64,000 nt of DNA from Candidatus Zhuqueibacterota bacterium (GTDB lineage Bacteria > Zhuqueibacterota > Zhuqueibacteria > Thermofontimicrobiales > Thiofontviventaceae), in assembly GCA_016926625.1 (NCBI GenBank), contig JAFGOE010000013.1, forward strand, positions 1,308-65,307, given 5' to 3'. Shown piece by piece: positions 7,095-47,691 of the stretch. The notes beneath the pieces are model-generated. The model saw nothing but the letters and a program-made list of their open reading frames with translations. It ran no database searches and was not told the DNA's origin. The translations under genes and the position numbers were made by a program. Within the stretch, counting starts at the first letter, position 1, and the number at the start of each line of letters is the position of its first letter.

Positions 7095-8411
7095 TTGAAT
7101 TTAGGACATATGATTTCGATCATCGTTGGTACGGTGATCGGCTCCGGTGTATTTATCACAGTACCGATCGTCGCACGGGAGGCTGGCAGTCCAATGCTGG
7201 CCGTCCTTGCATGGTTTATCGGGGGTTTGATCTGGGTTCCCCAAATATTGATTCTCGCTGAACTTGGCTCGGCTTACCCTGAAGAGGGATTTGGTTATCT
7301 TTATCTGAAGAAAGCTGGTAGCAAACCCCTGGCGTTTCTGTATGTTTGGACTGTTTTTTGGACGAGCGATACGCCATCCATCACCATCATTACACTCAGC
7401 GCCAGTTCTGCTTTGGCTTATTTTTATCCTCCTCTGGATAGTACGATACAGGGCAAGCTGTTAGCTGCCTTAATCATTATTTTACTCACGATGGTTCATT
7501 ATCGTGATGTACGACAGGGCGGTAATCTGCAGATTTTTTTGACGCTTGCCAAAATATCTCCGTTGATACTGCTCATTATCTGGGGCATGTTTTATTATGA
7601 TTCTGGCAATTTGACGTTCGTGATGCACCGTGGTACATCAACGACAAACTTATTTACCTTATTGGTAGCCGGAGTAGCGGCTACCACATGGTCTTACGCT
7701 GGCTTTCCTAACATTTTATATATGGCCGGAGAGATCAAGGAGCCGACTAAAAATTTACCACGAGCGCTGATCGGATCCGTATTCGGTATCATGCTGGCAT
7801 ATGTTTTACTGGCGCTGGCGACCAGTGCGATCATCCCCCAGAGTGACCTACTCGGATTTAGCGGAAAATTTGTGAATCCTTTTCAGTACCTCCCTGGTTT
7901 TGCTAAAATTGCAGGTGGTTTCTTAGCCATAGCCGCATTTATTTCCATGATCGGCGCGACAAACGCCTGTATTATGGTGCAGCCACGAATCGAGTATGCG
8001 ATCGCCAAAGACGGGATGTTCTTCTCGATTTTCTCGAAAGTACATCCCCAATATCGCACACCTTACTGGTCGATCATGCTTCAATCGGGTCTGGCCATCA
8101 TGTTGTTGTTCATCGGTAATATCGAAGAGCTGCTTGGTTATTTTACATTATCCTATTTACTGCAGAACGCACTGGTTTATATGGTGATATTTATCCTGAA
8201 GAGAAGGGATGATTATTCGCCGACCTATCATGCTCCGTATTGGAAATTTATGGCTATCGTTTCGATCATCGTGCAACTCTATCTTGCCTATGGCACGTTT
8301 ATCGCCTATCCGCTGGGTGGTGTCTTAGCCACGATTGTTCTTATCGGAACCGGCCTTCCCGTCTATTTCTACTTCGATAAGATCAAATCGAAAGCAGAAA
8401 TTAACTCTTGA
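7095..8411 (+). CDS. APC-family amino acid permease
   Basis: There are twelve predicted TM helices. The N-terminal glycine-rich motif GTVIGSGVFI is typical of APC transporters. Confidence 0.75.
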   Translation: MNLGHMISIIVGTVIGSGVFITVPIVAREAGSPMLAVLAWFIGGLIWVPQILILAELGSAYPEEGFGYLYLKKAGSKPLAFLYVWTVFWTSDTPSITIITLSASSALAYFYPPLDSTIQGKLLAALIIILLTMVHYRDVRQGGNLQIFLTLAKISPLILLIIWGMFYYDSGNLTFVMHRGTSTTNLFTLLVAGVAATTWSYAGFPNILYMAGEIKEPTKNLPRALIGSVFGIMLAYVLLALATSAIIPQSDLLGFSGKFVNPFQYLPGFAKIAGGFLAIAAFISMIGATNACIMVQPRIEYAIAKDGMFFSIFSKVHPQYRTPYWSIMLQSGLAIMLLFIGNIEELLGYFTLSYLLQNALVYMVIFILKRRDDYSPTYHAPYWKFMAIVSIIVQLYLAYGTFIAYPLGGVLATIVLIGTGLPVYFYFDKIKSKAEINS

Positions 8412-8820
8412 AGCGCTTAGAAATAATAGCTATAATTGAACAGGAACTCCCCAAATTAAATTGAAGGTTACTTTCCCTTGTTACGAAGTGATTTCCCATC
8501 ACCGAAGCCTGCTGTTGTTAAGTCAAGCTAATTTTTCTTTCGCACAGGGTAGTTTTCTTTAAATAACTCTTATTTGATACAGATCACACAATGTTATTAT
8601 CGAATTCATTAAATTTGAACAAAATGAAACTTTTCGAATATCACCTCGTTAAAATACAACGATAAAAACAATCTGTTCAAATTTTTAATAAATAAGCAAT
8701 AAATTATTATTTATTCGTAAAAATAAATAATTTAAATAAAATAGTGCTTGACACTTAACGTATAATTGATTAACTTTACTAACTTTTAGTTTAAACAGAC
8801 CGTTAACAAATAAGGAGAGA

Positions 8821-9525
8821 ATGCGAATGAACAAGAAGAATCTAAATATTAAAGCGTCATTGAAGATTCTCTTGATAGTTTTCACTTCGCTTTCGGTGAT
8901 TGGATTCTCGTTTCGTTATTTTGATGATTCCGATAAGACAACGCAGAAGATGAGGCATCTTGAGCGAGCGTTGCAGGATATCCGAGCTGCCATGAACGTG
9001 GACAGTGTACGTCAGTACGGTATCCAAAAAATCATGCGGATCATTACGACATACAACGAGACAATGCCATCTGAGAAAAAATATGAAATTGCCAATGAGA
9101 TATACGAGATGAGTGTAAAATATACAAATTTAGATCTCGATTTAATTTGTGCAACGATAACCCATGAGAGTGCATTGACATGGAATCCTAAAATTAAATC
9201 GCATGCCGGTGCGATCGGGCTGATGCAGATCATGCCAGCTACGGGTATGTATCTGGCGCGATATGAAGGGATTACATGGTCGACTGCGGAGGAGATACTC
9301 GAAGATCCGATATATAATATCAGAATGGGATCGAGATATTTATCTACGTTGATATCTTATTACAACCTTGATGGTGGTTTAGCCGCCTACAACGGAGGTG
9401 AGAAGACAGCCTCGAGATGGTTGGCAAGCAATAAGGCAGATGGTATTTTATACGCCGAAACACGAGATTACATTCCTGCAGTTATCAAGCTATACAAGCA
9501 ATTTCAGGATGAATCTGCGTTGTGA
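8821..9525 (+). CDS. Lytic transglycosylase (SLT domain) with N-terminal membrane anchor
   Basis: The SLT catalytic region reads ATITHESALTWNP...AIGLMQIMPATG...YNGG. Confidence 0.75.
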   Translation: MRMNKKNLNIKASLKILLIVFTSLSVIGFSFRYFDDSDKTTQKMRHLERALQDIRAAMNVDSVRQYGIQKIMRIITTYNETMPSEKKYEIANEIYEMSVKYTNLDLDLICATITHESALTWNPKIKSHAGAIGLMQIMPATGMYLARYEGITWSTAEEILEDPIYNIRMGSRYLSTLISYYNLDGGLAAYNGGEKTASRWLASNKADGILYAETRDYIPAVIKLYKQFQDESAL

Positions 9526-22916: not shown

Positions 22917-25796
22917 ATGAAGAGAATCTATTTATTAGGTGTATTGATGTTTCTACCGCTGCTGATTATGGCGCAATCGAACAGTGAATTTCGTGCTACC
23001 TGGGTCATATCCTGGGATCTGGTGAACAGATATCAGAGTGTTGAAGAGAATAAGGAATTATGTCGGAAGATCTTGGATAATCATAAAAAGGCGAATATGA
23101 ACGCCGTCCTGTGGCAGGTGCGACAGAGTGGCACTGCCTATTACAAATCGTCTTTTGAACCATGGGGTTACTATGCTGGTGGCACCAATCCAGGTTACGA
23201 TATTTTTGACTATGCGGTGACCGAAGCGCATAAGCGCAATTTAGAGATACATGCCTGGTTCAATGTGTTCCATTGTTCGAGTATCGTATACGGAGCGCCA
23301 GCCGCTGTTCATCCGGAATGGGTTTGTACGAATCAAAATGGGGAATTCATGACGAACAACAGGTGTCTGTCCCCGGGGATTCCTGAAGTGAGAGATTATT
23401 TAATACGAGTCGCCATGGAAATCGTGCGAAAGTACGATATCGACGGCCTGCATATGGATTTCGTTCGGTGGAATGAATATACCGAGGATGACATGCGTAC
23501 TGCACTTCCCAAAGAGGCAGAACTGCAGGTGTTAGATGGTCACATCACTCAGGAGCAGATCGATCGTCTGAATGATACCGGGACGTTGCGCTATATTTAC
23601 GACGTACAGCATCCGTACAACGGGGGAGTCCCGTCGGGATTCTCTTCGTGGGATGATTGGCGTCGCTGGACCGTCACCGAGTTCGTTAAGGTACTTCATG
23701 ATTCGATACAATCGGTGAAACCATGGGTTAAATTATCGGCAGCGGTCCTGGGAAAATATAATTGGGACGGTTGGCAGGGATATGGGACGGTTTATCAGGA
23801 TGCGGCATTGTGGTTCAATGAAGGCTATGTGGATCATTTGATGCCCATGCATTACCACTGGACGAGTCCCATGGAATTTTATTCGATGCTGGCCGGTCCC
23901 AACGGTGATAATAATTATAATAATTGCTGGGGTAAGTATATACAAAAGGGTATTCAGCAGGGACGGCTCTATTCGGTGGGACCAGGATCGTACATTCTGA
24001 GTGACCGGGGTGTTTGGGGCAATCATGAGTCAATTGTCAAGAAGGTTAGAGAAATAGACTGGGTGGATGGTTTTCAATTTTTCAGTTATGCAACCTGGCT
24101 GACTCGCAATTATTGGGATGAGGCGAGGAACAAGTTTTTCCCGACGATAACAAAAATAGGGAATACTGTATCCGCCGATTCAACGGCACCAGATCCTCCG
24201 GACATTACGATAACGCGACTCGATACCATGGTCTACCGTATCAGCGTAACTGAGGCGGCTACGGGTGATGATCCTGCATGGTTTGTCATTTACCGCGGCA
24301 GAGATAGTACGCTTACAAAGGATAAGTCATCCATCATTCTGATAAAGTTTAGTGACGAAGGTTTTCACTATAATGATTACATCGAGGAACGAAGAGGCGG
24401 ATATTTTTACTATGGAGTTTCTGCGGCAGATCGTTTCTGGAATGAATCTGAGATATCCAATATTGTCAGGACTGACGAATTACCGCATGAATCCGTGTTT
24501 CCTGAACCACCGATCATGCAGTATGTTAAGAAACTCGACAATGGGTACGAGGTAAAATGGAAACATTCCGGAGTGAACGATTGCATGGGTTATCGATTGT
24601 ACGGGAAAGCGGTTGATACGGATTGGTATCTGTTGCTTAACGAAAGCACGTTGGACGCTGGTACCACACAGGCTGTTGTTAACACGGCGATCGAAGAAGT
24701 CCCCTGGTACTTCATGGTTCGTGCCGTGGGCCTTGGGCCTGCGGCTCATGAATCTGTTGATTCCGACGTTTACGGTACGTATCGTTCAGATACTCAGAAG
24801 GTGCTGATCGTCGACGCGTTCGATCGGATGACAGGGGAGTGGAAATCAGCCACTCATCCGTTTGCAAAGCGCGTGGCAGAATCTTTGTCGCGTTTGAACA
24901 TATCGTTCGATTGTGCGTCGGATGAGGCATTTGAGGATAAATACGTCTTGCCTGATGATTATAAGGCGGTCATCTGGCTCGCCGGTGATGCCGTAGGACA
25001 GGATGAAGCCGTTAGCTACAATAACATGTCCTATCTGGCGAACTATTTGAAACGAGGAGGAGGACTATTAATTTCTGGTAGTGAAATCGCCTATGATCTC
25101 GATTACAAGGGCAATTTTCAGGATAAAAAGTTCATTCACGAGTATCTGAAGACGACTTATCGATCAAACGGTAGCGCTGGAAATGGTTATCAGGTCGAAG
25201 GGGATGAAGGAGGGATTTTTCAAAATTTGACTTTCGAATATGACAATGGGGAGCATGGTTTCAGGGTATTGACGCCGGATATCATCGATACGACCGGAGG
25301 AAGCGTGCCGTGTCTGAATTATTTTGGCAGCCCTGATTTTGCCGGGACACAGTATCGTGGTTCGATCGGAAACGGCACCGATGAAGCGCGAGTCATCACG
25401 TTGGGTTTTCCATGCGAAGCGATTTACGCGGTCGAGCAACTCGACCAATTTTTCGATCGCGTACTTGAATTTTTTACGATTACCGGGTCGATCGACATCG
25501 CAGAGCCGGCGCGAGTGGCGGATCGATTCACTATGTGTCGGAATTATCCCAATCCCTTCAACGCGGCGACGAACATTCAATTCTCGATCGATGAAGCAAT
25601 GGATTTGAGTGTCGATATCTACAATATCAGGGGACAGGTGGTTTACAGCCAGGCCTATTCGTATGATCAGGCAGGCTTAAAGACGATGAAATGGGATGGG
25701 GCAGATCAGTCCTCCGGTGTATATCATTACCGGATATACAGAACGGACGCAGGACAGCAGACGATCCATTTCGGTAAAATGCTCTATCTGAAATAG
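22917..25796 (+). CDS. Secreted multidomain protein: N-terminal glycoside-hydrolase-like family 10 (GHL10/DUF187) domain plus C-terminal T9SS sorting domain
   Basis: A signal peptide is present. The FRATWV..NAVLWQVR motif is typical of GHL10. The C-terminus NYPNPFNAATNIQFSI...IYNIRGQVV...GVYHYRI matches the Por_Secre_tail. Confidence 0.75.
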   Translation: MKRIYLLGVLMFLPLLIMAQSNSEFRATWVISWDLVNRYQSVEENKELCRKILDNHKKANMNAVLWQVRQSGTAYYKSSFEPWGYYAGGTNPGYDIFDYAVTEAHKRNLEIHAWFNVFHCSSIVYGAPAAVHPEWVCTNQNGEFMTNNRCLSPGIPEVRDYLIRVAMEIVRKYDIDGLHMDFVRWNEYTEDDMRTALPKEAELQVLDGHITQEQIDRLNDTGTLRYIYDVQHPYNGGVPSGFSSWDDWRRWTVTEFVKVLHDSIQSVKPWVKLSAAVLGKYNWDGWQGYGTVYQDAALWFNEGYVDHLMPMHYHWTSPMEFYSMLAGPNGDNNYNNCWGKYIQKGIQQGRLYSVGPGSYILSDRGVWGNHESIVKKVREIDWVDGFQFFSYATWLTRNYWDEARNKFFPTITKIGNTVSADSTAPDPPDITITRLDTMVYRISVTEAATGDDPAWFVIYRGRDSTLTKDKSSIILIKFSDEGFHYNDYIEERRGGYFYYGVSAADRFWNESEISNIVRTDELPHESVFPEPPIMQYVKKLDNGYEVKWKHSGVNDCMGYRLYGKAVDTDWYLLLNESTLDAGTTQAVVNTAIEEVPWYFMVRAVGLGPAAHESVDSDVYGTYRSDTQKVLIVDAFDRMTGEWKSATHPFAKRVAESLSRLNISFDCASDEAFEDKYVLPDDYKAVIWLAGDAVGQDEAVSYNNMSYLANYLKRGGGLLISGSEIAYDLDYKGNFQDKKFIHEYLKTTYRSNGSAGNGYQVEGDEGGIFQNLTFEYDNGEHGFRVLTPDIIDTTGGSVPCLNYFGSPDFAGTQYRGSIGNGTDEARVITLGFPCEAIYAVEQLDQFFDRVLEFFTITGSIDIAEPARVADRFTMCRNYPNPFNAATNIQFSIDEAMDLSVDIYNIRGQVVYSQAYSYDQAGLKTMKWDGADQSSGVYHYRIYRTDAGQQTIHFGKMLYLK

Positions 25797-30590: not shown

Positions 30591-31523
30591 TCAAGCATCT
30601 GAGTCTATCTCACGTAAATTCGATGGAAATTCGATAATGTCACCGTCGTTTGCGGCAAGGACATGCGGATGCACCTTTGATGCCTCCTGTACATACAATT
30701 CAGTAGACAGATATCGTTGGGAATAATGAGTCAAAACGAGAGTTTTCGCATTGGCTTTAAGAGCAATAGATGCCGCCTGCGCTGCCGTCAGATGACCATA
30801 TTCGTATGCCAGGGCACTTTCTTCAGAAAGGTACGTCGATTCACACAGTAAAATATCGGAATTTTCAGCCAGGTCGATAGCAGATTGGCATTCACGGGTA
30901 TCCATAATGAACGCGCAGCACTGTCCTTTTTTAAGTTTACTCACATCATCGATAGATATTCGTCTGTCGTGTACATCGATAAACCCTGATTTCACCAGCT
31001 GCTTAATTGCATCCCCTTGCACTCCAATTTCAGCCAGTTTTAATGGCTGAAGTGTTCTTTTGTCCTGTTCCTCGATGCGATAGCCATAGCTTTCCACCGT
31101 ATGATCTAATGATTTACATTTGATTGAGATGTTAACATCTTCATAAATAGTACCGGCAGATATGAACGGTTTTAGGACGATGTGTGTTTCTTCGTGATAT
31201 ATAGCAGCGTGAAGTAAGTTATTCACGTAGGGGGTTCCGTACTCTGGAAAATATAATTCGATATCATGCTGAACACGATCCAGAGAGATCCGTTGCACGA
31301 TTCCCGCCAGTCCTAAACAGTGGTCACCGTGAAAATGGGTGATGAATATTTTTGTGATGGATGATGAAGAGATATTGTTGAAAATTAATTGTCGTTGAGA
31401 ACCTTCACCGGGATCAAATAAGAATCCCTGTCCGTCCCATCTAAGAAAATAGCCACCCTGGTTGCGCGTTCGGGTTGGTACTTGTGCGGATGTGCCGAGA
31501 ATGTGAAATCTTTTTTGCGACAT
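30591..31523 (-). CDS. rnz: Ribonuclease Z (MBL-fold tRNA 3'-processing endonuclease)
   Basis: The motifs FDPGEGSQRQ (cf. FDCGEGTQ), HFHGDHCLGL and the C-terminal HYSQRY are present. The start was set at the Met (MSQKRFHILGT) downstream of the hairpin. The ORF is open to 31586. Confidence 0.75.
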   Translation of the reverse strand: MSQKRFHILGTSAQVPTRTRNQGGYFLRWDGQGFLFDPGEGSQRQLIFNNISSSSITKIFITHFHGDHCLGLAGIVQRISLDRVQHDIELYFPEYGTPYVNNLLHAAIYHEETHIVLKPFISAGTIYEDVNISIKCKSLDHTVESYGYRIEEQDKRTLQPLKLAEIGVQGDAIKQLVKSGFIDVHDRRISIDDVSKLKKGQCCAFIMDTRECQSAIDLAENSDILLCESTYLSEESALAYEYGHLTAAQAASIALKANAKTLVLTHYSQRYLSTELYVQEASKVHPHVLAANDGDIIEFPSNLREIDSDA

Positions 31524-31550: not shown

Positions 31551-31588
31551 ATGCCCCATTCTTGCACTGAGTGAAGAGTGGGGCATGT
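31551..31588 (-). other. Stem-loop (8-bp stem ATGCCCCA/TGGGGCAT, 20-nt loop) between encapsulin and rnz
   Basis: This was read directly from the sequence. It lies 13 nt after the encapsulin stop and has only a weak U-tract. Confidence 0.3.
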
Positions 31589-31600
31589 TTAGCTAGTCGA

Positions 31601-32401
31601 TTATTTTGTCTGGATATTCAAAACGACTGCAGGATCGACCGAATAGAAAGTAAATGATTCTGTAAAATACAGGCGGACTTTCTTCTGATCATGGGAGTGA
31701 AAACCGATGGACAGATCCTGGCCCAGTACGAGTTTCAAATCGCCGCCTCGCATCGAAACAAGGAATGAATCGTCGGTCGATGGGTTGATAATAACCGGTC
31801 CGCCGAGTATGCGCTCCAATTGGTTCTTCAACGGATAGCCCTTGATATAGGCGTAAATTGATTTCCATATTTGAGGATTAATGATGAGGGCGTATGGTCC
31901 TGAAATGGACGCATCAGCAAATAATGCCAGTCCGTTGCTAACTGTGGTCAGGATATCTTCGGCTTTACCCGAATACTGTAACGGTTGATGCGGTGAAACG
32001 TCTTTGATACCCTGAATCTTCCCGCTTTTAAAGCCCAGATAGATTGCTCGTTCTTCGAACAGGGCGATATTTTTAGCGGCTTTCTCCATCGCTGCTAGGT
32101 CGATATCTTCTGCGCCTCGTTCGATGTTATCGAGTTCCCACAGATCGAGTTCAAAAAAGGAACGTGTTTCGACGAGAGGTAGAATACGATGCACGCCGTA
32201 ATCAACGCCTTCGTAATCCTGTTTTTTCGGAACATCCAGTCTGCCGAGTTGAACTGCAGCGTAATCCCATCCTTTTGGCCCTTCGACGTCAACGAATTTA
32301 CGGGCTGATAGATGAGACGCTAAAATGATTTTTGCCTGGTTGTCTATTTCCTGCCATGCACTCTGAGTAATCGGTGCCAGCGAACGTTTTAATATATCCA
32401 T
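31601..32401 (-). CDS. Family 1 encapsulin shell protein (Linocin_M18 / HK97-fold nanocompartment)
   Basis: It is near-colinear with T. maritima encapsulin: LKRSLAPITQSAWQEIDNQA, RKFVDVEGPKGWDYAA, LDLWELDN, GGDLKLVLGQDLSIG and RLYFTESFTF. Confidence 0.92.
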   Translation of the reverse strand: MDILKRSLAPITQSAWQEIDNQAKIILASHLSARKFVDVEGPKGWDYAAVQLGRLDVPKKQDYEGVDYGVHRILPLVETRSFFELDLWELDNIERGAEDIDLAAMEKAAKNIALFEERAIYLGFKSGKIQGIKDVSPHQPLQYSGKAEDILTTVSNGLALFADASISGPYALIINPQIWKSIYAYIKGYPLKNQLERILGGPVIINPSTDDSFLVSMRGGDLKLVLGQDLSIGFHSHDQKKVRLYFTESFTFYSVDPAVVLNIQTK

Positions 32402-32445
32402 ATATACTACTCCTTATGGTTTAAGTGATCAATAGATTAGATAGA

Positions 32446-32796
32446 TTATTTTTTAAGACTTCCGATGCCCAGATCGCGTGCATGAGAAGACGGGGCTCCT
32501 TCCTCCGTGCCTTCCTCCAGATGCGTAATATCTCCTTCGGTGAAAAGATATGTCTTCAATTCTTCATCCCAGCCTGGCATGTTACGGCGCAGCCATTCCA
32601 GTGTCATGCATGCGTGCTCGATTTCTTCGTCACGATTATGAGCCATAATACTTTTCAGATGGTCATCGTTAGTCGCTGCAACTCGTTGGTGATACCAATT
32701 AACCGCTTCGATCTCTTCTTTTAAGCTATTCAGTGCTCGCACATAATTACGATCTTGTGCTTGTAATTCATCGACTGGTTCATGATAATCTGACAT
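32446..32796 (-). CDS. Encapsulated ferritin-like protein (EncFtn/Flp cargo) with C-terminal encapsulin targeting peptide
   Basis: The ferroxidase Glu/His motifs EEIEAVNWYHQR and DEEIEHA are present. The C-terminal DLGIGSLKK matches the family-1 cargo-loading peptide. The gene lies 44 bp upstream of the encapsulin gene on the same strand. Confidence 0.85.
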   Translation of the reverse strand: MSDYHEPVDELQAQDRNYVRALNSLKEEIEAVNWYHQRVAATNDDHLKSIMAHNRDEEIEHACMTLEWLRRNMPGWDEELKTYLFTEGDITHLEEGTEEGAPSSHARDLGIGSLKK

Positions 32797-32855
32797 CTTA
32801 CACTCCTAACATTTATATTTTATTAATTGACATAATTATTAATTAGATGATTTAG

Positions 32856-35633
32856 TTAGCGAGAAGTTTCTCGTGTTTTATAATAATGATACTTTTCAAA
32901 CTTAACGTACAGGTGAGTGATGGCGCTCATAAAGACACATATCAGCAGTTCTTTTATAGAAAGAGGTGTCACATTAAAGAATTTTGATAAGAATGGTGCA
33001 TAAATCGCCATCAGCTGCAGAACGATCGTCAGAACGATCATGATGAAAATTGCAGGATTGGTTTTAATATTAATGGAGAAGAACCTTCGTTGAAATGATC
33101 GGGAACCCAATGCCTGTCCGATTTGCATGAAGGCGAGAGAAGTAAATATTATGGTCTGCCAGGTGTTATCATTGGCCAAGTCTGTTTTGTAATAATATAA
33201 ACCCAGGGCGAGGGATAATATACCGATAAATAGTCCGATACGGATAATTTGGGCACCGACTCCATTCGCGAAGATGCTTGTATGCGGTGCTCGTGGTTTT
33301 TTTTGCATGATATTCCGCTCAGCAGGTTCCAGTCCCAGTCCGAAGCCCAGCAATCCGTCGGTCAATAGATTCAACCATAGCAATTGCAGTGGCATCAAGG
33401 CGACGCTGATCCCGAAGAACGGAGCGAGGAGCATGACAAGCACTTTGCCGATATTTCCGGCAATTGAGAATTTGATAAAGCGGACGATATTGTCGAAAAT
33501 AGTACGTCCCTCTTCGACCGCGGCAACGATGCTAGAGAAATTATCATCCAATAGCACCATATCGGAGGCTTGCTTTGCCACATCAGTACCACTTATCCCC
33601 ATAGCGATGCCGATGTCGGCTTTTTTCAAGGCGGGCGAATCATTGACGCCATCTCCCGTCATGGCAACGATTTCTCCCAAATCTTTCAGTGCATCGACGA
33701 TTCTCAACTTATGCTCGGGAGACACGCGGGCGAAAATAGAGACATGGCTTATCGCTTGTTTAAGTTCGGATTCTGACATAAGATTGAGTTGCTGACCGGT
33801 AATTATGTCTGCATTTGTTGTTATTCCAAGATCATAGGCGATAAATCGTGCTGTCAAGGGATGGTCTCCTGTGATCATAATCGGGCGAATTCCGGCAGTT
33901 TTACATGTCTGGACAGCCTGCTTGACTTCAGGACGTGGTGGATCAATCATACCAAATAATCCCACGAAAATTAAATTACTCTCCAGCTTTCTCAATTCAT
34001 ACTTATTCGGAACATCGTTAAGTAATTTGCATGCGATGCCCAGTACTCGCATCCCGTCCTGAGCTAATTTATCGTGGGCATCGTCGATCCGTTGCCGCCA
34101 TTTTTCGGTGATGGGTTCGATGTGTTCATTGATCATGATATGAGTGGCATTTTCGAGGAGATTGGCACTGGCTCCTTTTGTTATGGATATGTATTGGGTG
34201 TCCAGGATTTTAAATCGATCAATCAAATTTTTCAGACTGTCAGGCATATCATGAGTTCCATCAGTGGACGCATCGAATCGATGAACTGTGGTCATACACT
34301 TGCGATCTGAATCAAATGGTAATTCCGCGATTCTGGGGAATGAACCTCGTATCGCTTCAATCTGAAAACCTGCATTCGATGCGGCAATCAATAAAGCTCC
34401 TTCGGTTGGATCGCCGATGGTTTTATGCAGATTGGAGTCGGGTTGGTATTTCAAAGAAGCATCGTTACAGAGCACGCCACCTGTTAAAGCGACGCACAAT
34501 GCAATCGGTTTTTTCAGGAAATCGAAACTATCACAGACATCGATCGAATGATTGACAGAAAAGTGTTTTTTCAGCTCTTCGATCTCAGTCATATGGTCGG
34601 CCACATCGACGAACATCAGGGTCATCTTATTTTCAGTGAGTGTGCCGGTTTTATCTGAACAGATAACGGTAACCGACCCGAGGGTCTCGACTGCATGAAG
34701 TTTACGTATCAGTGAATTTCTGCGTAACATTCTCTGAGCACCGAGAGCGAGAGTGACTGTCATAACTGCTGGCAAACCCTCGGGGACCACGGCGACTGCG
34801 ACGCTGACCGCGGTTAAAAACATATCGCTTACACCGACGCCGTACAAAATCCCAATGATCATAATGACGATGGACACGATGATGCCGCACAGAGCAAGCG
34901 TTTTACCGACCTGGTCCAGTCTCTCCTGCAGAGGCGTGGTTTCTGACTGTACTCCCTGGATGAGACTGGCGATCTTACCCAATTCAGTCTTCATGCCTGT
35001 AGCCACAACGACTCCCTGGCCGCGTCCGTACGAAACAATGGTGCCCATATAGGCCAGATTGTGACGATCGCCCAGTGGAATGTCCTTGTTTTCGATAACA
35101 TGGATCTCTTTATCCACGGATTCGGATTCGCCGGTGAGTGCCGACTCCTGGATCCGGAGATTATTTGCCTCTATTAATCTCAGATCCGCTGGTACTATAT
35201 TTCCTGATTCAAGGTAGACGATGTCACCTGGTACCAGATGTTTTGTTAAAATTTCTATGATCTCATCGTCGCGCTTAACACGGATTAAGGGGACTGTCAT
35301 ATTGCGCAAAGCTGCCATAGCGCGTTCTGCTCTATATTCCTGGATGAATCCCAGGATAGCGAATAAGATCACGATCGCCATGATCGCGCTGGTTTCAGTG
35401 ATTTTCCCTAATACGCCCGATATAACGGCAGCTATGATTAAAATGATAACGAGGAGGCTGGTAAACTGAGAGAGCAGAATTCTCCAGGCTTTACGTTTAC
35501 CCTGCTCAATTAGTTCATTTGGCCCATAGTGGTCGAGCCTTACTCTGGCTTCGAGTGAAGACAAACCTTCTCTGGGATTGACCTGCAAATTGCTGCAAAT
35601 AAAATCGATCTGCTGCGTGTGCCATGTTTGCAT
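32856..35633 (-). CDS. Cation-transporting P-type ATPase (P2-type, Ca2+/Mg2+-like)
   Basis: The motifs are the phosphorylation site ICSDKTGTLT, TGES, MITGDHPLTA and GDGVNDSPALKKADIGIAMG. There are 10 TM helices. Confidence 0.85.
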   Translation of the reverse strand: MQTWHTQQIDFICSNLQVNPREGLSSLEARVRLDHYGPNELIEQGKRKAWRILLSQFTSLLVIILIIAAVISGVLGKITETSAIMAIVILFAILGFIQEYRAERAMAALRNMTVPLIRVKRDDEIIEILTKHLVPGDIVYLESGNIVPADLRLIEANNLRIQESALTGESESVDKEIHVIENKDIPLGDRHNLAYMGTIVSYGRGQGVVVATGMKTELGKIASLIQGVQSETTPLQERLDQVGKTLALCGIIVSIVIMIIGILYGVGVSDMFLTAVSVAVAVVPEGLPAVMTVTLALGAQRMLRRNSLIRKLHAVETLGSVTVICSDKTGTLTENKMTLMFVDVADHMTEIEELKKHFSVNHSIDVCDSFDFLKKPIALCVALTGGVLCNDASLKYQPDSNLHKTIGDPTEGALLIAASNAGFQIEAIRGSFPRIAELPFDSDRKCMTTVHRFDASTDGTHDMPDSLKNLIDRFKILDTQYISITKGASANLLENATHIMINEHIEPITEKWRQRIDDAHDKLAQDGMRVLGIACKLLNDVPNKYELRKLESNLIFVGLFGMIDPPRPEVKQAVQTCKTAGIRPIMITGDHPLTARFIAYDLGITTNADIITGQQLNLMSESELKQAISHVSIFARVSPEHKLRIVDALKDLGEIVAMTGDGVNDSPALKKADIGIAMGISGTDVAKQASDMVLLDDNFSSIVAAVEEGRTIFDNIVRFIKFSIAGNIGKVLVMLLAPFFGISVALMPLQLLWLNLLTDGLLGFGLGLEPAERNIMQKKPRAPHTSIFANGVGAQIIRIGLFIGILSLALGLYYYKTDLANDNTWQTIIFTSLAFMQIGQALGSRSFQRRFFSINIKTNPAIFIMIVLTIVLQLMAIYAPFLSKFFNVTPLSIKELLICVFMSAITHLYVKFEKYHYYKTRETSR

Positions 35634-39403: not shown

Positions 39404-39563
39404 ATTTCTTGGAAACAATAGTTATTATTCTAAGTGATATGGTGAGATTTTAGAAAAATAGTTAAAGACTTACGCGTTGCAGCAGGGCGCAGCGAAAAGC
39501 TGGCAGATGTTTTATTAAAAGGTGAGTGTAGATTGTGCCAGAAATAAAATAAGGATTAGTTCG

Positions 39564-40451
39564 ATGAAGCGTATAATTTTATGGGTCATTTGTATGATCA
39601 TATCAAAGCTCGTCTATGCTCAACCGCAATATATAACTACCATTCAGCCGTTTAAGATGATCATGATTGAACTGATAGGTGAAACAGGCACGGTAGATTG
39701 TATATTACCCCCCGGCGCTTCACCGCACACATACGAATTACGTCCTTCGGATGTCAAGAAAATCGCGAACGCCACGGCACTGGTAATGGGGGGGAGGCAT
39801 CTTGATGATTGGGCTTATTCATTGCAAGTCCGCAATCGAATCGAATTGATGCACTATGTACCCAAAGAACTATTCTTACCAGTGCTCCAAAGAGCAGACG
39901 AACATCATTCAGATAGTCCGCATGACCATGACCACGGCGATATGGATCCGCATTTTTGGACTGATCCTCTGATAGTCAAGCGGATGATTCCTGGGCTGCT
40001 GTCCAGACTTATAGAGATCGATCCTGATCATGCGAACGTGTACACCATGAATGCGAGGCGATTCGAAAACGAGCTCGATCGATTGATCGACGAACTTCTT
40101 CACCTATTTGAATTAAGTGGGAGGAAGCCAGTCATACTGTCCCATCCGTTCTTCCAGTATTTTCTGAACCGTTTTAAAATCGATCTGATCGATGTCATCG
40201 AAAAAGTGCCTGGCAAAGATCCAACTCCCAGAGAATTAAGCAAGATGATTCGGAGCGCTGAAAAAGGACAAAATAGTATTATCCTGACTCATCCGCAATT
40301 ACCTGATCGGTCAGCCCGTATCATCGCCGAATCACTGAATGCAGAACTCCTGGAATTGGATCCTTTGGGGGGACGTCCTCATCGGACGTCTTATTTTGAA
40401 TTGATCGAGTATAATGCAAGATTATTGTCAGAGGCTTTTAAAAGTGAATAA
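39564..40451 (+). CDS. znuA: Metal (Zn2+/Mn2+) ABC transporter substrate-binding protein, ZnuA/TroA-like
   Basis: A signal peptide is present. A His/Asp-rich loop EHHSDSPHDHDHGDMDPH is typical of ZnuA. A permease and an ATPase follow. Confidence 0.75.
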   Translation: MKRIILWVICMIISKLVYAQPQYITTIQPFKMIMIELIGETGTVDCILPPGASPHTYELRPSDVKKIANATALVMGGRHLDDWAYSLQVRNRIELMHYVPKELFLPVLQRADEHHSDSPHDHDHGDMDPHFWTDPLIVKRMIPGLLSRLIEIDPDHANVYTMNARRFENELDRLIDELLHLFELSGRKPVILSHPFFQYFLNRFKIDLIDVIEKVPGKDPTPRELSKMIRSAEKGQNSIILTHPQLPDRSARIIAESLNAELLELDPLGGRPHRTSYFELIEYNARLLSEAFKSE

Positions 40452-41190
40452 ATTTATCGTTGAAGTTGAACAAGCTTATGTCGTGTTCGATTCACATCAG
40501 GCACTGATCGATATCAATGTCCAAATTCCCCAAAATTCGTTTGTCGCCATTGTGGGGCCTAATGGCGCCGGGAAATCGACGTTCATTAAATCGTTATTGG
40601 GACTGGTGAATCTAACTTCCGGAACGATCAAGATCGATGGAAGGTCGCCACAAGAGGTCTCTCCGGGCGATATCGGTTATATTCCGCAAGTTAAGACGAT
40701 GGACAGGACGTTTCCTGCATTAGCCATCGAGCTTGTGATAACCGGTTTGGATTACCGCTGGCCCTGGAAACGTTCTCATCCGAATATCGATCGGGCATAC
40801 GAAGCGCTGCAGCGTGTTGGTGCCGAACATTTAGCGAACAGACAGATCAGCAAACTTTCGGGTGGAGAATTACAACGAGTATGCCTGGCTCGTACTATAG
40901 CCAGGGAACCTAAACTGGTCATGCTGGATGAGCCGGCAACAGGGATTGATGCGATTGGAGAGACCGATATGTACAATATGCTGGAGTCGTATCAGACATC
41001 GTCCTGTGCAACGATATTGATGATCACGCACGATTGGCATGCCGCCACGCATCATGCAGATTATGTGCTGTTATTGAATCGTAAACAGATTAGTTTCGGT
41101 CCTCCTGCCGAAGCATTAAGCGAAGATAATCTCCGTCTGGCTTTTGGTCATATCGGCCACAGTCACCGTTTAAAATTTTTGGTAAAATAA
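40444..41190 (+). CDS. znuC: Metal ABC transporter ATP-binding protein (ZnuC-like)
   Basis: The motifs are Walker A GPNGAGKST, signature LSGGELQRVCLAR and Walker B LVMLDEPATGID. The start is taken as the GTG overlapping the znuA stop; an upstream ATG at 40414 is also possible. Confidence 0.8.
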   Translation: MNKFIVEVEQAYVVFDSHQALIDINVQIPQNSFVAIVGPNGAGKSTFIKSLLGLVNLTSGTIKIDGRSPQEVSPGDIGYIPQVKTMDRTFPALAIELVITGLDYRWPWKRSHPNIDRAYEALQRVGAEHLANRQISKLSGGELQRVCLARTIAREPKLVMLDEPATGIDAIGETDMYNMLESYQTSSCATILMITHDWHAATHHADYVLLLNRKQISFGPPAEALSEDNLRLAFGHIGHSHRLKFLVK

Positions 41191-41191
41191 A

Positions 41192-42001
41192 ATGTCTGAA
41201 ATGTTCTCCTATCCTTTTATGCAACGAGCGTTAATAGCGGGAGTACTCGTCGGATTTCTGGCCAGTTATTACGGTGTGTTCGTTGTTCAGCGCGGACTTA
41301 GTTTCCTGGGTAGCGGTTTGGCGCATGCTGCATTCGGTGGTGTCGCGCTGGGATTGTTGTTGAATTCAGAGCCGTTATGGATCGCAGTTCCTTTTACCAC
41401 GATCATTGCAATAGCAATTTTCTGGGTTAAAAAACGTACGAATTTGGGCAGCGATACTGCAATCGGGATATTTTTTTCGATCTCCATGGCGTTGGGAATT
41501 ATCTTCCTCTTCCTGAAAACCGATTACTCCAGTGATGCATTCACCTATCTATTTGGCTCGATCATCGCTGTTACGAGGACTGATATATGGTCGACGGTGG
41601 TAATTACATTAATAACAATTATTTTTATCCCTCTGTGGAAACGCTGGGCTTACGTGTCTTTCGATCGTGAACTAGCGGAAACGGATCATCTCCCTGTCGA
41701 CAGAGACGATTATTTATTAGCGATATTAATAGCAATCACAATCGTCGTTGCCATTAAAGTGGTGGGCATTGTTCTCATCGCTGCGTTTTTAGTCATCCCG
41801 GCAGCGACGGCAAGATTGGTCTCGAGCACGTTTAGACAGATGACAATTCTCTCGGTTATAATAGGTATTTTCAGCGCATTGATCGGACTTATTGCTTCAT
41901 ATTATCTTGATGTGCCCAGTGGTGCTACGATTATATTGTTCCAGGCGATCCTTTTCTTCCTGGGAATGCTGCTTAAATCTTTGCGATTTATCATCGGGTG
42001 A
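41192..42001 (+). CDS. znuB: Metal ABC transporter permease (ZnuB-like)
   Basis: It has 8-9 TM helices of the ABC-3 family. It is 1 bp after the znuC stop. Confidence 0.8.
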   Translation: MSEMFSYPFMQRALIAGVLVGFLASYYGVFVVQRGLSFLGSGLAHAAFGGVALGLLLNSEPLWIAVPFTTIIAIAIFWVKKRTNLGSDTAIGIFFSISMALGIIFLFLKTDYSSDAFTYLFGSIIAVTRTDIWSTVVITLITIIFIPLWKRWAYVSFDRELAETDHLPVDRDDYLLAILIAITIVVAIKVVGIVLIAAFLVIPAATARLVSSTFRQMTILSVIIGIFSALIGLIASYYLDVPSGATIILFQAILFFLGMLLKSLRFIIG

Positions 42002-44159: not shown

Positions 44160-44900
44160 TTAGAAAAGTTTTTCGTAACGCGCGGCGACATCCTGCCAAT
44201 TGATAATATCGAATAGTTTATCCACATAGGCGGCGCGTGCATTCTGATATTTAAGATAATAGGCATGTTCCCAAACATCGATCACGAGCAATGGCATAGC
44301 ACCCCATTGGGTGAGGTTTTGATGGATTTCGGACTGCAAAATCACGAGTCGCTGGAAGATTGGCTGATAGGCCAATATACCCCAGCCGCTTCCTTCGACA
44401 GATTTTGATGCGGCGGATAATTGAGCCTTGAGTGTATCGAAATTACCAAATTCAGCGTTTATTGCGTCCGCAAGTTTCCCCGCAGGCGTACCACCACCCT
44501 GGGGTGAAAGATTTTCCCAATAGATTGTATGAAGTATATGTCCTGATCCATGAAATGCCAGTTCTTTTGACCAGTGTTTGACCATAGCGAAATCGCCTTC
44601 GGCCCGTGCTTTCGCCATCATATTTTCGGCATGATTCAATCCTCTTACATAACCCGCATGATGTTTATCATGGTGCAGTGTCACGGTCTCAACATCGATC
44701 ACCGGCTCGAGGGCATCGTAGGCATAAGGTAGTGGTGGCAACAGATGATTACCCTGTGGTATCATCGTTGTTGCTCTGATTGTTTTCTCTTTTAAGGCGG
44801 TGTCCTGGGCTTTCAATCCCGATGAGATTGCTGAACCCAGCACGATAGCCCCACCGCCGATACTCAACTGCTTTAAAAATTCTCTTCGGCCTTTCGACAT
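44160..44900 (-). CDS. Fe/Mn-family superoxide dismutase with twin-arginine (Tat) signal peptide
   Basis: The N-terminus GRREFLKQLSIGGGAIVLG is the Tat consensus S/T-R-R-x-F-L-K. The SOD motifs LPYAYDALEP..HHDKHH and DVWEHAYY are present. Confidence 0.9.
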   Translation of the reverse strand: MSKGRREFLKQLSIGGGAIVLGSAISSGLKAQDTALKEKTIRATTMIPQGNHLLPPLPYAYDALEPVIDVETVTLHHDKHHAGYVRGLNHAENMMAKARAEGDFAMVKHWSKELAFHGSGHILHTIYWENLSPQGGGTPAGKLADAINAEFGNFDTLKAQLSAASKSVEGSGWGILAYQPIFQRLVILQSEIHQNLTQWGAMPLLVIDVWEHAYYLKYQNARAAYVDKLFDIINWQDVAARYEKLF

Positions 44901-44969: not shown

Positions 44970-46142
44970 TTAAAATCCCCCGGTCAGGCCAAATGTCATT
45001 CGATTGACTTCGTATTCGATATCCCGTGTGTATTCGGCGATAAGCCTTAAATTTCGTGATAACAGGTACGTGCCGCTCAGCGTCGCCGTCTCATAGGGAT
45101 ACAGATCTGATTCGATCTTATTGTACAGTCCCGTGAAATAGAACCTTGATCGATCTAATTGCGGAGCGTATATCAATTCGGCGATATAGCCTTTGGCATC
45201 AAATTCGGTCGCATCATCGGCAAACAACGGATTGGTATCTTTTCTCTCCAGATATTGACCCGTGAACTCAAGCGGACCGACGCTTACGTTGATGTCGGGT
45301 CCCCAATAGGTGATTTCATTTTTCAATTGGGAACCTACTTCCTTTTCTTTGCCCTGATAAAAATACGCGCCGATGCTCATAAAATCGCCGATACCCTCAC
45401 TGATTCTAAACCCGAAATTTTTGTAATCATCGTTGTCAAATTTTAAATCGTCTCCTGCCTCATCTTTCCCATTGCCATTGACAACGAAAGCAATCAGGTC
45501 GGTACCTGTTTTTTCGATGCCATAGACCAGCATGATACCGCGATCGTAGGCGAGATTCGTGCCCGAGTGACCGAACCTTGTCTTGTAGAACACATAATCC
45601 TCGAAGGTCAGGCGCAATTCTCTCTTCATCAGGGGATCAGACGTCTGGAACTGGCCCACCATAATGTCAAGCGGGGTGCTGAAGACATTATCGAAATGTA
45701 TATAGGCATCTTCGATACCGGCGACTTCCCCGCGTTCTGACATATAAAAATAGAAATAATATCCGATGCTTTTATAGAGAGTTCCGCCTGACATTAGTTT
45801 TAATCCCCAGGGAATTTGCAGGTCCTTTTCAACCTCCTGATCCTGATCAAAGTGAGCATAAGCGTCGAAGCGCACGGCGAGAGGGAATTCCTTGTTCAGC
45901 CATAACAGTTCATCGCCAGCGGTTACGTAATCGCGTTCCTGCTCATCTTCGACGATAATAAATCCATTTCCGGCAAATTCGTCACCATACGGTTTCAATT
46001 TTGGAAACGGAGCATGGCAGGTATTACACGATATCTTATATCGACGGGCAAAGGCGGGGATAGCTCCCGATTCATCGACGATGATTAAATTGATGGTTAG
46101 GAATAAGATCAGCAGCGTGAAAACAAACAATTTACTTCTCAT
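44970..46142 (-). CDS. Cyc2-like fused monoheme cytochrome c / outer-membrane beta-barrel porin
   Basis: A GGAGGG RBS and a signal peptide are present. The motif IPAFARRYKISCNTCH has CxxCH at 46014-46028, directly after signal cleavage; this is the PxFARxY-CxxCH pattern described for Cyc2. The rest of the protein has alternating amphipathic beta-strand character and ends in a C-terminal Phe. Confidence 0.6.
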   Translation of the reverse strand: MRSKLFVFTLLILFLTINLIIVDESGAIPAFARRYKISCNTCHAPFPKLKPYGDEFAGNGFIIVEDEQERDYVTAGDELLWLNKEFPLAVRFDAYAHFDQDQEVEKDLQIPWGLKLMSGGTLYKSIGYYFYFYMSERGEVAGIEDAYIHFDNVFSTPLDIMVGQFQTSDPLMKRELRLTFEDYVFYKTRFGHSGTNLAYDRGIMLVYGIEKTGTDLIAFVVNGNGKDEAGDDLKFDNDDYKNFGFRISEGIGDFMSIGAYFYQGKEKEVGSQLKNEITYWGPDINVSVGPLEFTGQYLERKDTNPLFADDATEFDAKGYIAELIYAPQLDRSRFYFTGLYNKIESDLYPYETATLSGTYLLSRNLRLIAEYTRDIEYEVNRMTFGLTGGF

Positions 46143-46165: not shown

Positions 46166-47512
46166 TTACTCATATACTTCCACCCATGTTTCGGCAGAAT
46201 TGACAGGGATAATTTCGCTTTCATCCTCAGGCACATTGAGGAAATCGGCGACCGGTTTTACTAATTTCTGATAGTTTAATTGAGCCTTGAAATGGACTTT
46301 CCCGATGGCGATGTCATCCGGTAGCGGCCACGTAAATGTCTCGATCTTGGTTTCACGGGGACCGATCCTGTAATCGACGCCGAGTGATTTCGTGTTCCAC
46401 TGCATGATGGTCATGCGACCTTCGGGATCAAAATACGGCATTCTGAAGATACGATCTCCAAACGGCACACCATCACGTTGTATTCCTTGAAAATTCGGAA
46501 TCCGTTTGGGTATGCCCAGATCTTGATAAGCTAACACATCGGAGGAGATGGTATATTCTTCGCCTGCAAAACCTTTCTTATCGACTTTCAGATGATATTC
46601 CTTGCCTTCAGCATCGGTAGCGGTGACGTGGAGCCATAAAATACGATCTTCAACAGAACCTGAGGGAATTTTATGCCCTGCTTTGGCATTGAACAGTTGG
46701 ACTTTTAGCACGATGGTGTCGTCGTATTCGATCTCGCGTTCCTCGGGATGCATCCTCAACTCAATGGATCCGCCCACTTTACCGCGATCATGGGCACCGT
46801 GGAACAGATGCTGTGAGACGGTATCGATCTCGGCCATGGTTGCGTTTTTACCCAGTGCCCTTGGCATGTGACATTGGTGACAGGGGACTCCCTCTTTCGC
46901 ATAAGGCCCTTCTTTCCATTCGATTTGTGTTGATTTGACATAGACATCGAACGGACTCTTCTCGTTATGGCAATTGGCACAATATTCCGTTTGTGTATAG
47001 AATTCTTTGTACGCTGTCTCATGGTGTGGTGAGACGGCACCGGGTTTATTGCCGTATTTTACGCGACCAGGCTGTGAGACGTAGCTGAAATTGTACGGAA
47101 TATCTCCTTTGTAACCCGAGATCGTATGGCACACATCGCAGCTTACACTTTCGTTGGCGCGGGAATTTTTTTCCGGGCGTGGCGGGGGAACATCACCGGC
47201 CAGATACGCCATGGGGGTGTGGCAACCATTACATCCGTGCGAAGCGGACAAGAACCTTTCATCCACTTTGGCGTGTTCGACTGCCAGATCGAAATATTCG
47301 ATCTCATCCCAGTGATGGGTGTAGGCTTGTGCCATCATGGATTGTGTCCATTGTTGATAGATATCGACGTGACAGCTCTTGCATGTTTTGGGATTCTCGA
47401 ACTGGTCGTAACTCTTGGTGCCCATCGCCTCTTCCCCCGAGGGTAAATCTTGAGCAAGCATTGTCAAACTTGATAACAAAATGACTAATACAAAAATAAT
47501 GAGATATCTCAT
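46166..47512 (-). CDS. Periplasmic pentaheme c-type cytochrome
   Basis: The start is set at MRYLIIF with a GGAGGAGG RBS immediately upstream. A signal peptide is present. There are five CxxCH motifs: CKSCH, CNGCH, CDVCH, CANCH and CHQCH. The C-terminal half of about 230 aa has no heme motifs. Confidence 0.8.
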   Translation of the reverse strand: MRYLIIFVLVILLSSLTMLAQDLPSGEEAMGTKSYDQFENPKTCKSCHVDIYQQWTQSMMAQAYTHHWDEIEYFDLAVEHAKVDERFLSASHGCNGCHTPMAYLAGDVPPPRPEKNSRANESVSCDVCHTISGYKGDIPYNFSYVSQPGRVKYGNKPGAVSPHHETAYKEFYTQTEYCANCHNEKSPFDVYVKSTQIEWKEGPYAKEGVPCHQCHMPRALGKNATMAEIDTVSQHLFHGAHDRGKVGGSIELRMHPEEREIEYDDTIVLKVQLFNAKAGHKIPSGSVEDRILWLHVTATDAEGKEYHLKVDKKGFAGEEYTISSDVLAYQDLGIPKRIPNFQGIQRDGVPFGDRIFRMPYFDPEGRMTIMQWNTKSLGVDYRIGPRETKIETFTWPLPDDIAIGKVHFKAQLNYQKLVKPVADFLNVPEDESEIIPVNSAETWVEVYE

Positions 47513-47691
47513 GCCTCCTCCGCTAGGAAAAAATGATGTGAAGTTTTTATTTGCATTAAAAATGGTGTTTTTTATTCTAATTTTGAGATTAGTGTTCCGA
47601 TTCATTGTGATAATTTAATATACAACATATTGATGATAAATCAAGTATTTTCTGACCAAAAAAAGGAAATATTTCGGCTCACATCAGGAGA

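Follow-up and report, generated by a model that had tools for sequence, protein, structure and literature searches.

We analyzed a 64-kb stretch of DNA, hereafter the window (64,000 nt; contig JAFGOE010000013.1 of assembly GCA_016926625.1, positions 1,308–65,307), from a metagenome-assembled genome (MAG) of a candidate division KSB1 bacterium. Near its center, two adjacent minus-strand genes encode what is, with high confidence, a functional two-gene family-1 (classical) encapsulin system with an EncFtn ferritin-like cargo. The EncFtn gene (32446–32796), called from its open reading frame (ORF) and profile matches, encodes 116 aa and a C-terminal end reading ...SSHARDLGIGSLKK. After a 44-bp spacer (32402–32445), it is followed by the shell gene (31601–32401), which encodes a 266-aa family-1 encapsulin of HK97 fold predicted to form a T=1 60-mer. 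An earlier note on this DNA had described ORFs of 116 and then 266 aa lying 44 bp apart; both were confirmed at these minus-strand coordinates and are real genes, well beyond chance. Shine–Dalgarno sequences precede both start codons: AGGAG, read from the sequence at 32803–32807, lies 6 nt 5′ of the EncFtn ATG and is unchanged in two relatives (loci L001 and L004), and AAGGAG, within the spacer at 32410–32415, sits 8 nt before the start codon of the shell gene. In NCBI, an entry from a candidate division KSB1 MAG (MBN1153524.1) is 100% identical to the shell and is named ‘bacteriocin family protein’; the cargo (MBN1153525.1) is a ‘hypothetical protein’.

Both proteins matched their families at full length and above curated cut-offs, as expected for the complete family-1 operon with EncFtn cargo that had been proposed. 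The shell spans positions 1–253 of 253 in the Linocin_M18 model PF04454 (272.1 bits, E = 5e-81; cut-off 24.3 bits) and positions 1–258 of 261 in the NCBIfam equivalog NF041155, encap_f1 (265.3 bits; cut-off 100). Its residues 1–261 align to residues 1–261 of the Thermotoga maritima shell 3DKT with four one-residue indels and 42–43% identity (E = 1.5e-68), which bears out the near-colinearity suggested earlier; the second-best solved shell is that of Haliangium ochraceum (7ODW, E = 4.5e-58). An AlphaFold2 model based on 38 homologs reached a predicted local distance difference test score of 85.5 and a predicted template modeling (TM) score of 0.82, adopted the HK97 fold and accommodated all 266 aa, with no fused domain. 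In a Foldseek search of the PDB, the top 27 matches to this model were all T=1 family-1 encapsulins with probability 1.00. TM scores were 0.84–0.86 for wild-type T=1 shells, or 0.78–0.86 counting engineered pore mutants, and 0.65–0.76 for T=3 and T=4 shells at 12–20% identity. Sequence and model thus most likely correspond to a T=1 60-mer particle of ~24 nm. Compared with its two closest relatives (87% and 79% amino acid identity), the shell gene gave nonsynonymous divergence (dN) values of 0.08–0.15 with saturated synonymous divergence (dS), and therefore a low, if rough, dN/dS of about 0.03–0.06 that indicates strong purifying selection.

The small protein is a full-length EncFtn. It matches Pfam EncFtn-like PF22277 over profile positions 2–85 of 85 (142.2 bits, E = 4e-42; cut-off 27) and the NCBIfam model TIGR04535, ‘encapsulin-associated ferritin-like protein’, over positions 1–114 of 114 (163.7 bits; cut-off 125). 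An EncB-type identity was rejected at a score of 73 against NF058679, below its cut-off of 90. The closest solved structures are Rhodospirillum rubrum EncFtn (5DA5), Nitrosomonas NE0167 and H. ochraceum EncFtn, with residues 3–95 aligning gap-free to 5DA5 (E = 1e-29). In R. rubrum EncFtn, the di-iron centre is formed by Glu32, Glu62 and His65 with Tyr39 nearby, and Glu31 and Glu34 constitute a secondary site (He et al., PMC5012862). At an alignment offset of +4, the cargo contains all of the ferroxidase-centre ligands (E28, E58 and H61, together with Y35) as well as the entry-site residues E27, E30 and W34. Each of these residues is kept in 81–86 of the 86 cargo proteins from related loci. The earlier note had read ferroxidase Glu/His motifs (E-x-x-H) from the sequence and had set their absence on alignment as its own refutation; the ligands are in place.

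The remaining C-terminal part of EncFtn comprises a variable linker rich in acidic residues, Gly, Pro and Ser (about residues 92–107) and the targeting, or cargo-loading, peptide DLGIGSLKK (residues 108–116; 32449–32475, minus strand). This peptide contains the LGIGSLK core of both the T1 consensus DGSLGIGSLKG (PMC7925596) and the family-1 consensus SDGSLGIGSLKRS given in the 2021 encapsulin census (PMC8346489). It also matches GSLGIGSLR of H. ochraceum (PMC10960027) and has the DLGI core in common with the T. maritima cargo tail GGDLGIRK; the comparison agrees with its earlier designation as a canonical family-1 cargo-loading peptide. Most of the 86 related cargo proteins carry a [DS]LGIG core at their extreme C-terminus, preceded by hypervariable linkers, a pattern expected if a flexible tether carries a docking tag. 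The core continues with SLKK in the window clade and several others, and with KIKK mostly in Bacteroidales, where most EncFtn tails (loci L014–L086, Bacteroidales and relatives) read DSLGIGKIKK, with the widely cited GSL swapped for GKI across a large clade and the LGIG core kept. Within the 64-kb window, no other ORF has a targeting-peptide-like tail that would mark a secondary cargo.

The shell retains the residues to which such a tag would dock. Cryo-EM and mutagenesis of the Klebsiella pneumoniae encapsulin (KpEnc) showed that Arg34 and Asp229 hydrogen-bond the peptide backbone and that Ile230 lines the hydrophobic pocket of the peptide site, with Arg34, Asp38, Asp229 and Ile230 all probed by mutation (PMC10960027). 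Residue equivalence to KpEnc was taken from a colinear alignment of residues 2–261 to 2–261 rather than from a residue-by-residue listing. The corresponding site of the window shell consists of R34, D38, D229 and L230, identical to T. maritima, so that the second refutation check set in advance, loss of the targeting-peptide groove, also left the assignment standing. Among 87 shells, R34 and D229 are invariant (87/87 each) and D38 occurs in 82. A second conserved feature is the flavin-site pair W88/R80, equivalent to the FMN-stacking W87/R79 of T. maritima. LaFrance et al. reported that only ~35% of Flp-loaded encapsulins have a flavin-binding Trp (their W90) and that nearly all of these come from anaerobes (PMC8610991). 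We assume this residue to be Trp87 in 3DKT numbering, as there is no other Trp nearby. By sequence, the shell of the window clade is accordingly in the subset retaining this Trp and may be a flavoprotein.

We then assessed how consistently the two genes occur together. Scanning genome contigs with a single protein turned up no close relative, whereas scanning reference genomes with a shell alignment yielded 80 related loci. Their hosts are Bacteroidales, Ignavibacteria, Zixibacteria, Syntrophales, Desulfovibrionaceae, Spirochaetota, two further KSB1 MAGs and others. EncFtn lies directly 5′ of the shell gene, at a distance of 8–180 bp, in 79 of the 80 loci, the exception being a shell gene at a contig edge, and the same order was found in all six metagenome loci. 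The system had been called notable in this lineage, a view not supported by the same gene pair in other KSB1 MAGs (L075, L077 and P0005) and in many anaerobe lineages. Flp/EncFtn encapsulins are reported across 23 bacterial phyla (PMC8346489), and a literature search for KSB1 together with encapsulin found no paper. The operon is real, intact and almost certainly functional, and represents a standard example of a well-characterized type that is common across anaerobic lineages, other KSB1 genomes among them.

Comparison with characterized systems placed the operon closest to T=1 iron encapsulins. It resembles the T. maritima encapsulin TM_0785 (3DKT/7KQ5) with its Flp/EncFtn cargo TM_0786 in cargo-then-shell order, in the colinear shell (TM 0.84–0.85), and in the DLGI core, peptide-site and FMN-stacking residues described above. 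Unlike T. maritima, whose tail ends in a ...IRKL sequence with an Asp–Arg salt bridge, the window cargo carries the more common ...GSLKK ending; the shells further differ by the four indels and in the fivefold-pore loop, and the host is a mesophile-like KSB1 MAG of about 44% GC rather than a hyperthermophile. With R. rubrum EncFtn Rru_A0973 (5DA5; encapsulin Rru_A0974), the cargo shares identical ferroxidase-centre (E32/E62/H65/Y39) and entry-site (E31/E34/W38) residues, the gap-free core and a C-terminal localization sequence. It differs in having N33 where R. rubrum has Asp at position 37, and in a shorter linker of other composition (116 aa in total versus 140 aa in R. rubrum; PDB 33bf). 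The H. ochraceum encapsulin:EncFtn complex (7ODW/7OE2) is likewise close (shell TM 0.86; EncFtn E = 5e-27) and its targeting peptide almost identical, although shell identity is 39% and the host is an aerobic myxobacterium. This complex consists of a T=1 shell with EncFtn decamers, as is predicted for the window system. The T=3 and T=4 iron-storage encapsulins (Myxococcus xanthus EncA–EncBCD and Quasibacillus thermotolerans IMEF) also combine an HK97 shell with ferritin-like cargo and a GSL-containing C-terminal peptide. Their shells are larger and diverge in sequence and fold to the extent given above (12–20% identity, TM 0.65–0.76), and their cargo is EncB/C or IMEF; the operon is not of this subtype.

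By homology to these systems, we infer the assembly, loading and chemistry of the compartment as follows. EncFtn would form iron-dependent D5 decamers as Fe2+ fills di-iron ferroxidase centres between subunits (PMC5012862). Its DLGIGSLKK tail, on the flexible linker, would dock in the luminal groove formed by R34, D38, D229 and L230 near the fivefold axes, and the 266-aa shell protein would therefore close around the docked cargo as it self-assembles, most likely into a T=1 particle of 60 subunits and ~24 nm. Fe2+ would then pass the shell pores and be oxidized by EncFtn, with ferric mineral accumulating in the lumen, as described in PMC5012862 and PMC8346489. Such deposition would buffer free iron and limit Fenton chemistry. 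The type of system, its loading mechanism and its chemistry are established in T. maritima, R. rubrum and H. ochraceum, in line with the earlier description as established biology, and no new question is opened. The main value lies in re-annotating a ‘bacteriocin family protein’ and a ‘hypothetical protein’ as a complete EncFtn encapsulin system, through which candidate division KSB1 joins the lineages with an uncharacterized, textbook-like, predicted T=1 iron nanocompartment.

Three points weigh against this assignment or limit its reach. Relative to T. maritima, the loop at the fivefold pore has one residue fewer (AYIKG-YPL versus EEAGHYPL); it retains the Tyr but lacks the outward-facing His of T. 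maritima (in AGHYPL, KG-YPL here), so that pore properties may differ. In each of the three intergenic regions of the cluster, consensus scans for Fur19, Fur 7-1-7 and PerR sites stayed at background, with no operator emerging that would link expression to iron or peroxide. Sequence is no guide to the T number, to the cargo stoichiometry, or to whether the compartment serves iron storage or protection from oxidative stress in what is probably an anaerobe. Beyond these, we found nothing substantive against a functional EncFtn encapsulin operon.

Downstream, a stable RNA hairpin (31551–31586, minus strand) lies 14 nt past the shell stop codon. Its minimum free energy is −19.9 kcal/mol (z = −3.96), and none of 200 shuffled sequences folded equally well. 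Strong hairpins with unrelated sequences stand at the equal position after the shell gene in L001 and L004, which suggests a conserved transcript end or stabilizer and, probably, the 3′ end of the operon. No U-tract follows the hairpin, so intrinsic termination here is putative. For RNase Z, the mechanically called minus-strand ORF (331 aa) has its start, 31586, within this hairpin. Because family alignments begin at its residue 22 and orthologs have 308–310 aa, the true RNase Z start is probably the ATG at 31523, giving 310 aa. On the other side, 59 bp upstream of EncFtn, lies a P2A-type cation ATPase gene (32856–35633, minus strand; 925 aa; MBN1153526.1). A consensus scan of the minus strand found no convincing promoter-like or terminator-like site in the EncFtn–shell or the ATPase–EncFtn spacer. 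Since the latter lacks a terminator-like site, read-through from the ATPase into EncFtn possibly occurs. Within the same spacer, a 10-nt block, ATCTAATTAA (32818–32827, minus strand), is shared unchanged by the window, L001 and L004, in contrast to the divergent remainder of the spacer; on weak evidence from three related sequences, it may act on EncFtn as a promoter or operator. A PerR-like 13/15 match at 32878–32892 was rejected as chance, as it falls inside the end of the ATPase coding region and is not conserved in L001.

The ATPase contains the motifs DKTGT, VVPEGLPAV (PEGL) and TGDGVND, and the Pfam domains E1-E2_ATPase and Cation_ATPase_N/C. With this protein, none of the NCBIfam equivalogs reaches its curated cut-off; the top models are the PMR1 type (690 versus 798) and the SERCA type (628 versus 703). 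The nearest solved structures are Listeria LMCA1 (E = 6e-166), SPCA1 and SERCA. An iron-transporting P1B4 pump similar to PfeT or CtpD was considered and rejected on the PEGL motif, the Cation_ATPase_N/C domains and a score of 232 against the heavy-metal model TIGR01525, below its cut-off of 346 and compared with 628–690 for the type IIA models. P1B pumps are instead marked by a (C/S)P(C/H)-type motif at the transmembrane metal site. The ATPase sequence points to Ca2+ or Mn2+ transport by a P2A-type pump rather than to iron. The earlier note had taken the adjacent P-type ATPase as a pointer to iron, a link unsupported by the pump type and by an adjacency confined to close relatives.

The same note had placed an iron-oxidizing conduit 12 kb away. 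At that distance, a minus-strand ORF of 390 aa (44970–46142) has a signal peptide and the N-terminal sequence AIPAFARRY-KIS-CNTCH-APF-PKL. The published Cyc2 signature comprises a signal peptide, AxPxFAR[Q/K][T/Y], a single CxxCH, PxL four residues downstream, a length of at least 365 aa and a C-terminal beta-barrel (PMC8406198). In motifs and length, the ORF agrees with this signature except for Arg at the [Q/K] position; it ends in ...GGF with a terminal Phe, and the basis for its putative barrel is a sub-threshold SlpA_C match of 25 bits. No NCBIfam model matches it. Upstream (46166–47605, minus strand) lies a gene for a 479-aa five-heme c-type cytochrome with a weak ExtKL-like match, and downstream (44160–44900, minus strand) one for an Fe/Mn superoxide dismutase with a Tat signal. 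Together, the three genes look like a candidate outer-membrane module for Fe(II) oxidation or extracellular electron transfer. A Cyc2-like identity is plausible for the proposed conduit, which is a reasonable lead in its own right, but the ORF is unlinked to the encapsulin operon, which lies on the far side of ZnuABC, a PHO4 transporter and housekeeping genes. With 12 kb and unrelated genes in between, the ‘iron-centred physiology’ drawn from these neighbors was a loose inference.

Several other explanations of the locus were weighed. The NCBI names, and an HK97 fold common to encapsulins and phage capsids, could suggest that the shell is a degenerate prophage capsid or a secreted ‘bacteriocin’ next to an unrelated hypothetical protein. 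We give this virtually no credence: Linocin_M18 is the sole Pfam match of the shell, ‘bacteriocin/linocin’ being the legacy name of PF04454, the encap_f1 equivalog reaches 265 bits where 100 would suffice, and the small ORF encodes a full-length EncFtn that carries a targeting peptide. No phage morphogenesis genes (terminase, portal, protease or others) occur in the shell neighborhood, which instead comprises the ATPase, RNase Z, a methyltransferase, ABC transporters, PHO4 and ZnuABC. Family, context and cargo evidence rule out both identities. A further proposal would extend the two-gene system to an ATPase–EncFtn–encapsulin module, with the pump transcribed together with the pair and linked to the nanocompartment in function, for instance in coordinating metal homeostasis, as in the ‘iron-centred’ reading of the earlier note. 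In its favor, ATPase and EncFtn share a strand, the 59-bp spacer contains no terminator-like site on that strand and holds the invariant ATCTAATTAA block, and the gene order is kept in relatives with saturated synonymous sites. In addition, a Bacteroidales MAG (L067) encodes a P-type ATPase directly 5′ of its EncFtn–encapsulin pair (7365–9485, plus strand), although this is a CopA-like P1B pump of another class, with an HMA domain containing GMSCSNC and a CPC motif. We nevertheless regard coupling as unlikely. The window pump belongs to the P2A (Ca2+/Mn2+) type rather than to the P1B pumps for Fe/Co/Zn/Cu, and among related loci it adjoins EncFtn only in L001–L005. The adjacency looks like plain synteny, because the 79–87%-identical relatives with the pump have at least eight more flanking genes in conserved order, including RNase Z, an ABC transporter and a Na/Ala symporter. 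It is gone in a 60% relative, and an ortholog stands next to the pair in none of the 80 more distant genome loci. Over 74 loci, the nearest upstream gene is heterogeneous, with Fur-family regulators and nitroreductases commonest (7/74 each) and no P-type ATPase family among the upstream families recurring in at least two loci. The text of the 2021 census does not mention any ATPase (PMC8346489).

For the two-gene EncFtn encapsulin, we also considered whether the main role is protection from oxidative and iron stress, by scavenging Fe2+ with O2 or H2O2 as oxidant, rather than bulk storage for an iron-based energy metabolism. To us, this is a serious possibility that falls somewhat short of an even chance. 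Anaerobes or microaerophiles make up most of the relatives (Bacteroidales, Ignavibacteria, Syntrophales, Desulfovibrionaceae and Zixibacteria), the commonest upstream neighbors are the Fur-family regulators and nitroreductases just mentioned, and the flavin-binding Trp is reported almost solely in anaerobes (PMC8610991). Flp encapsulins are, moreover, credited in the literature with acting both in stress resistance and in iron homeostasis (PMC8346489). The Cyc2-like gene in the same window, on the other hand, leaves an iron-oxidizing lifestyle possible. The proposal refines the physiology without conflicting with the mechanism, and the two roles cannot be told apart from sequence. A bolder combination appears quite improbable: that in this KSB1 clade the operon was recruited into a three-gene unit with the P2A pump, with a flavoprotein shell (W88/R80) exchanging electrons with the mineral under anoxia and, together with the Cyc2-like Fe(II) oxidase, acting as a redox-active iron buffer. 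If true, the compartment would not be a passive iron store; the positive evidence for this combination is confined to local synteny, conserved residues and the occurrence of these genes together within 64 kb.

Among the remaining features of the window, for which Rfam returned no RNA family, a ZnuABC-type (ABC-3) metal uptake system (39522–42001, plus strand) is encoded at a distance of 4 kb from the encapsulin operon. Between PHO4 and ZnuA, L001 has a Fur-family regulator gene, probably Zur-like (942–1367), whereas the window has none at this place. Further away, a plus-strand gene (22917–25796) encodes a 959-aa GHL10-family glycosyl-hydrolase-like protein with a Por_Secre_tail, a type IX secretion sorting domain, the presence of which suggests type IX-like secretion in this KSB1 genome.

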